A stretch of 64,000 nucleotides of DNA from Octopus vulgaris. Taxonomy: Eukaryota. Where the stretch lies: contig OX597816.1 in NCBI GenBank assembly GCA_951406725.2, positions 83,390,001-83,454,000 on the forward strand, read 5' to 3'. Under the pieces are notes generated by a model. That model saw only the letters and a list, made by a program, of their open reading frames with translations, had not been told where the DNA came from and made no database searches. How positions within the stretch are numbered: position 1 is the first letter of the stretch; each line of letters begins with the position of its first letter. A program made the translations under genes and the position numbers. This document shows positions 22,661-23,452 of the stretch, piece after piece.

Positions 22661-22880
22661 TGTATGTATGTATGTATGTATGTATGTATACACACACACA
22701 CACACATATATATAACATAAGGGACTAAAGCCATCTGAATATGGCTAGGGACAGGGCAGGGTGGTGGGGGTGTTACTGTTGCATTTAGCCCCAGTCGAAC
22801 ATCGACGTCGCCAGATAGGCTTGACACCATCACGGTGTCCTTTAACCTGCAAAGGGAGATAATTCCCCGATGAAGCGGAA

Positions 22881-22932
22881 ACCACACACGGACCATGGTT
22901 TCAAGGTGTATTGCCTATCATCAACGTGTGGT
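22881..22932 (-). ncRNA. Type I hammerhead ribozyme (U3 variant), GUC site
   Basis: accacacg-TTGATGA-taggcaatacacctt-GAAA-ccatgg-TC-cgtgtgtggt. Confidence 0.8.
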
Positions 22933-23149
22933 AGGCCCCCGCTTCCTCGACGAAATCTCACTCTGCAGGATATTCATATATAGATTTTCAAGCAAAATAC
23001 ATTTGCTGATTTCGAAAATCTGTCTATATCTCATTTAGAGAATTATTATTGCTGTCGAACAGATTTTCGAAATCAGCAAATGTATTTTGCTTGAAAATCT
23101 ATATATGAATATCCTGCAGAGTGAGATTTCGTCGAGGAAGCGGGGGCCT

Positions 23150-23201
23150 ACCACACGTTGATGATAGGCAATACACCTTGAAACCATGGTTCGTGTGTGG
23201 T
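23150..23201 (+). ncRNA. Type I hammerhead ribozyme (U3 variant), GUU site
   Basis: accacacg-TTGATGA-taggcaatacacctt-GAAA-ccatgg-TT-cgtgtgtggt. Confidence 0.75.
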
Positions 23202-23404
23202 TTCCGCTTCATCGGGGAATTATCTCCCTTTGCAGGTTAAAGGACACCGTGATGGTGTCAAGCCTATCTGGCGACGTCGATGTTCGCCTGGGGCTAAATG
23301 CAACAGTAACACCCCCACCACCCTGCCCTGTCCCTAGCCATATTCAGATGGCTTTAGTCCCTTATGTTATGGAGCAGTTACTGTCTATATCTCATTTAGA
23401 GAAT

Positions 23405-23452
<48 letters not shown>

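Follow-up and report, generated by a model that had tools for sequence, protein, structure and literature searches.

Within 64,000 nucleotides of Octopus vulgaris DNA (the window), positions 22705-23470 hold a single insertion of a non-coding 361-nt hammerhead repeat and the TA tracts around it, and the anatomy of this insertion was confirmed. The repeat belongs to a family of non-LTR retrozymes—that is, of non-autonomous Penelope-like elements (PLEs)—whose copies were likely (with a probability of about 0.85) placed in (TA)n by a Penelope-type reverse transcriptase (RT)/endonuclease acting in trans. The single locus is ordinary; its value lies in the statistics of the family.

Anatomy of the locus

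The features of the locus and its flank are the following.

21820..22650, minus strand: non-LTR retrotransposon fragment in the unrelated flank, with a broken ORF (Pfam zf-RVT E=5e-4, below cut-off)
22705..22711, no strand: left (TA)n target remnant, adjoining (CA)n and (ATGT)n
22712..23023, minus strand: left arm, unit positions 40-351, with its 3′ end at family site A (351) and no tail
22881..22932, minus strand: mirror hammerhead of the left arm, with the family-typical GUC and a predicted cut after 22891
23020..23023: junction microhomology of 4 nt, CTGT on one arm and ACAG at unit 40-43
23020..23410, plus strand: right arm, unit 1-361 plus 1-30, 5′-truncated at 23020, with its 3′ end at site B (position 30)
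23097..23107, plus strand: TATA-like element upstream of the ribozyme stem, a candidate internal promoter by sequence only
23150..23201, plus strand: predicted type-I hammerhead, with stem I at 23150-57/23192-201, the core at 23158-64 (U3, G8), stem II at 23165-79 with U10.1-U11.1, GAAA at 23180-83, palindromic stem III at 23183-90, the triplet GUU and a predicted cut after 23191
23371..23410, plus strand: PLE-type tail, confined to one arm; its length is 40 nt here and most often 44 nt
23411..23470, no strand: right (TA)n target tract

The original prediction described the right arm as one 361-nt monomer plus 30 nt and the left arm as a 312-nt inverted copy, with the run CTGT belonging to both; the coordinates match ours, and the shared run was confirmed. 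The inverted arms (22712-23023 and 23059-23370, 312 nt each) are separated by a spacer of 35 nt, with the junction microhomology at 23020-23023, and arm B, ending at site B, extends 39 nt further inward here than arm A, ending at site A. Numbering of the unit starts at 23020, which is the point of 5′ truncation of the right arm and no natural unit start, and no second copy of the unit was found elsewhere in the 64-kb window. The direct repeat of 30 nt (23020-23049 and 23381-23410, spacing 361) had been taken as a special terminal redundancy; it means only that one arm is 391 nt long, and is ordinary, the two fixed 3′ ends ~44 nt apart corresponding to the known PLE tail. The 4-nt microhomology proved no more special, with overlaps of at least 4 nt in 19/70 two-armed loci versus 1.5 expected, although the overlaps were taken from BLAST alignments, which may inflate them somewhat. 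Both traits are ordinary because the inverted-arm-plus-tail footprint described for PLEs in the consulted text of PMC8557442 and PMC3846280 already includes such ends.

The arms differ at exactly two positions, namely 22891/23191 (GUC left, GUU right) and 22795/23287. A read artefact, against which these differences had been held to argue, is indeed not the explanation, nor is chance: the two-armed shape recurs in 70/90 other loci. The GUC/GUU difference is real but not a functional pair of variants; GUU is a private mutation of the right arm, because C stands there in 201/202 unit copies. Both outer ends of the insertion run into TA repeats, as originally proposed for a TAT at each 3′ end; this TAT is not special, however, the last bases of the site-A end coming from the TA target, since in one haplotype position 350 is G in internal units and A in the terminal unit. 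The target tract being (TA)n, a target-site duplication is unreadable, and in a search for the empty site no contig of four DNA-type runs spanned the locus.

Since there is only one ribozyme per strand, the locus cannot release a 361-nt monomer or circle; the distances from cut site to arm end are 219 and 179 nt. Transcription reading through both arms would give a 312-bp hairpin, and the circular unit is predicted to fold more stably than shuffles (z about −4, 30 shuffles). A 147-aa frame at 23168-23611 was rejected as a gene, its ATG being missing in haplotypes with a swapped stem III palindrome, and Rfam miRNA-family matches at the locus were set aside as reflecting the inverted repeat. The flanking fragment at 21820-22650 is, by its motif, presumably R4/Dong-like. 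Elsewhere in the window, strong GC and AT skew was seen at 36001-38000 and 50001-54000, which are probably simple-repeat tracts.

Insertion ends and the missing coding partner

The genome searched comprised 2.8 Gb in 227 contigs. A search with the unit gave 1436 candidates, 40 of them scored, and exact junctions of site A (unit 351) with TA numbered 528 genome-wide. Set (a) consists of 62 distinct loci from full-unit or ribozyme queries and is biased to long copies and to the window's haplotype; two of its loci, counted separately, are an 837-nt insertion found twice (G000:C30 10292967-10293802 and 10303869-10304704, L021 and L027) with identical flanks 10.9 kb apart, which is a segmental duplication rather than two insertions. 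Set (b) consists of 90 of the first 100 listed of the 528 site-A junctions (the other 10 being 8 met in earlier searches and 2 others); it is unbiased for length, and as it was chosen by site A, the arm-A end at 351 is selected for. Set (c) consists of 70/88 junctions from an older subfamily with an identity of about 88%. Simple two-armed insertions make up 70 of the 90 set (b) loci, with 17 one-armed and 3 complex, and 44/70 loci of set (c) are head-to-head and two-armed. Nested insertions clustered in TA tracts were seen at L288:3850-5960, including a ~600-nt duplicated block and small inverted units.

In the two-armed loci of set (b), arm B ends at 34 in 57/70, at 30, as in the window, in 5/70, and at 28-35 in 69/70; in the older subfamily it ends at 34 in 40/44. 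Each arm thus has its own 3′ end site, and the two sites lie ~44 nt apart. In set (a), which was assembled without selecting for either end, an end at 337-351 is paired with an end at 27-35 in 42/62 loci, and (TA)3 lies within 3 nt of 99/107 3′ ends. Inner (5′) ends, by contrast with these fixed sites, showed no departure from a uniform spread over the unit register (KS p=0.43; 107 arms of the length-biased set (a)), so the check on whether other copies start in different registers came out as originally anticipated: 5′ ends start anywhere.

Fixed ends of this kind are known from PLEs. In vitro, two RT start sites spanning the tail are used on both target strands, according to the text seen of PMC11167929, and the one-sided tail is described there and in PMC8557442. 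Endonuclease-plus PLE insertions, as far as the consulted portions of PMC3846280, PMC8557442, and PMC11167929 describe them, share with the octopus copies an inverted 5′-truncated copy on the 5′ side, a head-to-head junction with overlap or palindrome, a hammerhead in the repeat, a one-sided tail of 30-40 nt, and microsatellite targets. Head-to-head inverted arm, one-sided tail, and microsatellite target, the marks of PLE mobilization, are all present in the octopus family. It differs in having no ORF, a tail of 44 nt, up to 14.7 units per arm, and two start sites that lie in non-coding sequence, at 179 and 223 nt downstream from the cut site. By analogy, the PLE enzyme would nick both strands of the TA tract, and reverse transcription would be primed at two internal RNA sites, A=351 and B=34.

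The fixed 3′ ends and the tail, being PLE features, are also what would be expected if the copies were 5′-truncated pLTRs of a coding PLE. The original prediction had named this as its refuting case, and the 3′ ends are fixed as that case has it; for the sampled loci, however, descent as pLTRs of a coding PLE is contradicted. On the 5′ side of their arms no ORF was found, nor was any RT plus GIY-YIG ORF between pLTRs, the layout of an autonomous PLE. In 30/90 loci, two or more complete ribozymes stand 361 nt apart in one arm with nothing between them, and the longest arm holds 14.7 tandem units (L221), with no ORF between units. PLE protein matches in the 243 fetched loci (duplicates included) lie only beyond the element's outer ends, and none was found in the 17 one-armed loci of set (b). 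All 29 tail read-throughs (of 30 places fetched) continue as unit sequence, 27 for a whole unit; in the remaining two, other DNA begins after 12 nt and after 37 nt. An origin as truncated pLTRs is hence highly improbable, and the lack of an own ORF together with arms of up to 14.7 units makes the family a non-LTR retrozyme, or non-autonomous PLE. A coding copy in unsampled loci would name the parent and would leave the non-autonomous status of the arrays unchanged.

The enzyme could come from coding PLEs, which are abundant in the genome, some of them intact, with RT plus C-terminal GIY-YIG. They end in (TA)n, and one (L121) has the same inverted-arm shape. The genome holds active coding PLEs, which class as Neptune/Nematis-type by the cysteine linker criterion given in the consulted text of PMC8557442. 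With 150 of 6136 GIY-YIG candidates scored, no pLTR sequence in common with the unit was found by blastn in 74 loci of about eight coding PLE families; 13 coding-PLE 3′ regions and three more of the L374 family gave no match to the unit, the 13 scoring at shuffle level. A tail match in L121 turned out to be a separate older sister repeat, and a 13-nt match to the L288 3′ region was dropped because it is not kept across subfamilies. The odd ribozyme build of the unit recurs in the L121, L129, and L130 families, where positions 10.1/11.1 are mismatched as U-U or C-A and L121 has U4C as well; as candidate partners these families are a lead only.

The coding PLE insertion at L121:1321-4483 forms a perfect inverted repeat of 766 nt whose two arms share one end site; its ribozyme has a C3/C4 core with a U-U mismatch, like the youngest subfamily of the 361-nt repeat. 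L111-L120 (for example, L114:68-1504 and 1426-3768) belong to a young PLE family in which the 781-aa RT/GIY-YIG frame is intact in 17/150 listed places and overlaps an upstream frame of up to 479 aa that has no convincing Pfam match, a two-ORF PLE layout; the upstream frame of L291 is related to it. L374-L387 (for example, L377:2815-6126) form a very young PLE family, 40/40 scored of 1279 candidates being ~100% identical; its C-rich frame is up to 1104 aa long, and close to its 3′ end lies a hammerhead-like motif of the U3-G8 kind. L131-L155 are an older sister non-coding family (2835 candidates) with a canonical core, a C-A mismatch at 10.1/11.1, a stem III palindrome of its own, and a tail end that is almost the same, likewise in (TA)n.

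By its sequence the family fits the definition of a non-LTR retrozyme, and it inserts in the way of a PLE. Chlamys elements such as MRC1, in the available account of PMC8557442, are likewise non-autonomous PLEs with multicopy head-to-tail insertions; unlike the octopus repeat, for which no autonomous partner was found among 74 coding PLE loci, they are similar to autonomous families in their 3′ ends, and canonical hammerheads are absent from most of them. Metazoan non-LTR retrozymes, in the portions consulted of PMC7229834 and the preprint 10.64898/2026.07.22.740005, are non-coding tandem ~300-nt units with a GC of about 45%, carrying type-I hammerheads with a short palindromic stem III, ranging from monomers to multimers, and proposed to be moved by PLEs, a link put forward in both sources. 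The 361-nt family has these features, the GC of about 45% among them, in common with metazoan retrozymes and lies within the unit range of 150-400 nt, so that the original assignment to a retrozyme-type unit with a predicted hammerhead stands, and it carries the type-I hammerhead of each unit as a motif (52 loci), without an Rfam match. Tandem complete ribozymes (at least two), the mark of an active copy, occur in 30/90 loci and not in the window. The differences are that the core deviates here, that the octopus family is known from DNA sequence alone, and that its arrays appear to be long at birth; in addition, no insertion ends are mapped in the text seen of those two sources, whereas a PLE two-site inverted-arm footprint is found here.

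A predicted, deviant hammerhead probably under selection

The hammerhead-like motif (unit positions 131-182) was located by pattern and by hand. Rfam gave no hammerhead at gathering score over the window, and none among the 45 matches with E<=10 at 22600-23500. In the window, the core reads U3-U4-G5-A6-U7-G8-A9, with U3 replacing C3. The full motif is present in 52 loci of set (b) (184 copies), where the 3-8 pair is C-G in 45, U-G in 6, U-A in 1, and never C-A; the older subfamily of set (c) has mostly U3-A8. Stem II is identical in 52/52 loci, stem III consists of one palindrome in 47/52 and a swapped one in 5/52, and the cleavage triplet is GUC in 52/52 by locus majority. The older sister family has a canonical core and a third stem III palindrome. 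Pairing at 3-8 is always kept and position 7 is free to vary, the pattern predicted by selection on a hammerhead; the 3-8 covariation and the stem III palindrome swaps argue that the motif is under such selection.

Every version of the core is nevertheless deviant, having either U3-G8 or U4C (C3/C4, in 45/52 loci), plus U10.1-U11.1. As far as the sources were consulted, U10.1-U11.1 and U4C are natural, weaker variants (Perreault 2011), and U3-A8 is natural, with dimer action at low activity (Cervera 2014; PMC4209133). The minimal PLE hammerheads of PMC4209133 resemble the octopus motif in being type I with a palindromic stem III, in a covariant U3-A8, and in predicted dimer cleavage; in the octopus, stem I is longer and bulged, U3-G8 and U4C versions occur, and a 3-bp stem II lies behind a U-U mismatch rather than G10.1-C11.1. 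Folding predictions bury the ribozyme core in the monomer (MFE), and a stem III dimer duplex is predicted at about −11 kcal/mol.

In L292 (L221), the change of UU to CC at core positions 3-4 strengthens the predicted inactive monomer fold (−19.1 versus −14.7 kcal/mol), and the same change goes with longer arrays, the median longest arm being 779 nt (n=45) versus 405 nt (n=7). One reading is that the change may protect a circle from re-cleavage. Four runs presumed to derive from RNA contain contigs with parts of the unit, and in 3/4 of these runs contigs cross the 361-nt back-joint, as tandem genomic arrays also would, so that these contigs can neither separate a circle from tandem DNA nor give an expression level.

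Origin of the mirror arm and of the arrays

Arm lengths at a locus are correlated (rho 0.70, n=70, set (b); 0.33, n=44, older subfamily), and the correlation of 0.38 among long-long pairs shows long arms co-occurring on both sides. In readable set (a) loci, stem III is of the same type in both arms, single mutated copies apart, and in six short loci a private variant is common to both arms. The mirror arm is no independent insertion, because the two arms of a locus share haplotype, stem III type, and private variants and are coupled in length. Permutation was carried out within the 45 loci with two short arms, which removes the short/long contrast. In 9/45, no more than 2 nt separate the two inner ends (2.3 by permutation), arm A reaches 5-18 nt further in 16/45 (4.4), and arm B does so in 3/45 (3.7). 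Lock-step synthesis of arms of equal length was discarded, equal lengths being seen in 3 loci versus 3.3 expected. Overall, the deeper inward reach belongs to arm A in 42/70 loci and to arm B in 20/70, so that a single fixed fold-back order cannot explain all loci; nor was a scar of site A seen within arm B.

Offsets the size of a loop, together with junctions located at intrinsic hairpins, suggest that the 3′ end of a cDNA primed close to itself, either by folding back or by using a sibling cDNA, two routes that these data do not distinguish. The 3′ end of the nascent cDNA would prime through a few complementary bases, on itself or on a sibling, and so build the inverted arm within the same event; here the bases would be ACAG/CTGT, with a 35-nt loop. 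Self-priming on antisense RNA, discussed in the consulted text of PMC3846280 and PMC8557442, would likewise give an inverted arm, the outer ends then being set by endonuclease cuts ~44 nt apart. Offsets clustering at 0 and 5-18 nt, the size of a hairpin loop, junctions at intrinsic hairpins with overlaps of 15-18 nt (L218, L247), and microhomology at the 19/70 junctions would all suit this model, but cDNA fold-back fits them equally well and requires no antisense template. Moreover, the two tail-matching RT start sites in PMC11167929 were shown in vitro on sense RNA. The antisense route is consequently considered unlikely.

The arrays themselves are homogeneous. Unit divergence is 0.30% within an arm, 0.35% between the arms of a locus, and 1.27% between loci (110 units, 15 loci, indel-prone zones excluded). 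Locus-private variants occur in 6/6 units of L162 and of L259, in both arms, five private variants are present in only some units of a locus, and L250 and L274 have a private variant at the same outer register in both arms. The least-mutated arrays are the longest, with 2 single-unit substitutions in ~23 units of L221 and none in L163 and L223. Several haplotypes are each represented by long, homogeneous arrays of their own. In the youngest haplotype, the longest arm has 15 units, in 1/17 loci among the first 100 listed of 222 matches, and a longer master array may exist among the others; arms of the older subfamily have at most about 2.7 units.

Local amplification, in which solo pLTR-like units would have grown into arrays after insertion by unequal crossover, is favored for retrozyme arrays in the accessible part of the preprint 10.64898/2026.07.22.740005, and variants shared by scattered units in L240 are as conversion or unequal exchange would give. 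Against such growth, the longest arrays carry the fewest mutations, the arms of the older subfamily remain short, and long arms co-occur on both sides. Post-insertion growth is therefore rather improbable, and the data favor arrays made at insertion. Coupled arm lengths and homogeneous long arrays suggest that both arms and the arrays were made from one template, perhaps a circle.

A circular template for the long arrays has, in our estimate, somewhat better than even odds. Repeated reading of a monomer circle, formed by dimeric hammerhead cleavage of multi-unit transcripts, would yield long homogeneous arms; the studied copy, with one ribozyme per strand, would be no source of circles. More specifically, and with odds just under even, the arrays may have been born multimeric, the enzyme starting from two fixed positions of a single 361-nt RNA circle, rolling round it up to 15 times, and making the mirror arm from this template as well, all in one event. 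The same family and enzyme could also do without a circle, if long source arrays were transcribed into linear multimers that served as templates without being cleaved; the hammerhead would then be weak or only dimerize RNA, and arrays would stem from a master array or from template jumps. This possibility is a serious one, though we incline away from it. Hammerhead mutants left PLE insertion in vitro unaffected, with uncleaved RNA the main substrate (PMC11167929), and 8/9 Xenopus retrozyme dimers remained uncleaved (preprint 10.64898/2026.07.22.740005); every octopus hammerhead core is deviant, too. The position-specific variants common to both arms in L250 and L274 are what a linear multimer template would give, but a first-strand error copied by fold-back would give the same pattern. 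Against linear templates stand the homogeneous arrays of individual haplotypes and the private variants in all units of two multi-unit loci, which call for repeated expansion from one unit, and the presence of a 15-unit arm in only 1 of the 17 youngest-haplotype loci among the listed matches. As to the 5′ ends, no pile-up is seen at the predicted cut site (3/157 at 173-174); an excess just 3′ of the cut (40/132 versus 9/92 at risk, p=2.5e-4) was not replicated in the older subfamily (21/83 versus 11/62, p=0.32).

In the literature as far as consulted, the case for PLE mobilization of retrozymes has so far been based on ribozymes in common, on co-occurrence, and on the phylogeny of pLTRs, and no statement on arm-length coupling was found in the openly accessible part. 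The octopus family contributes the anatomy of insertions from hundreds of young copies, with PLE ends on pure retrozyme arrays, and adds arrays that are longest when youngest and arms that are coupled in length. If the arrays were born multimeric on a circle, the family would document rolling-circle target-primed reverse transcription on the scale of a whole genome, and it would offer a minimal substrate for the second half of PLE integration, which is still unsolved. The 361-nt RNA makes two questions testable, namely whether a circle serves as template and how the PLE inverted arm is made.
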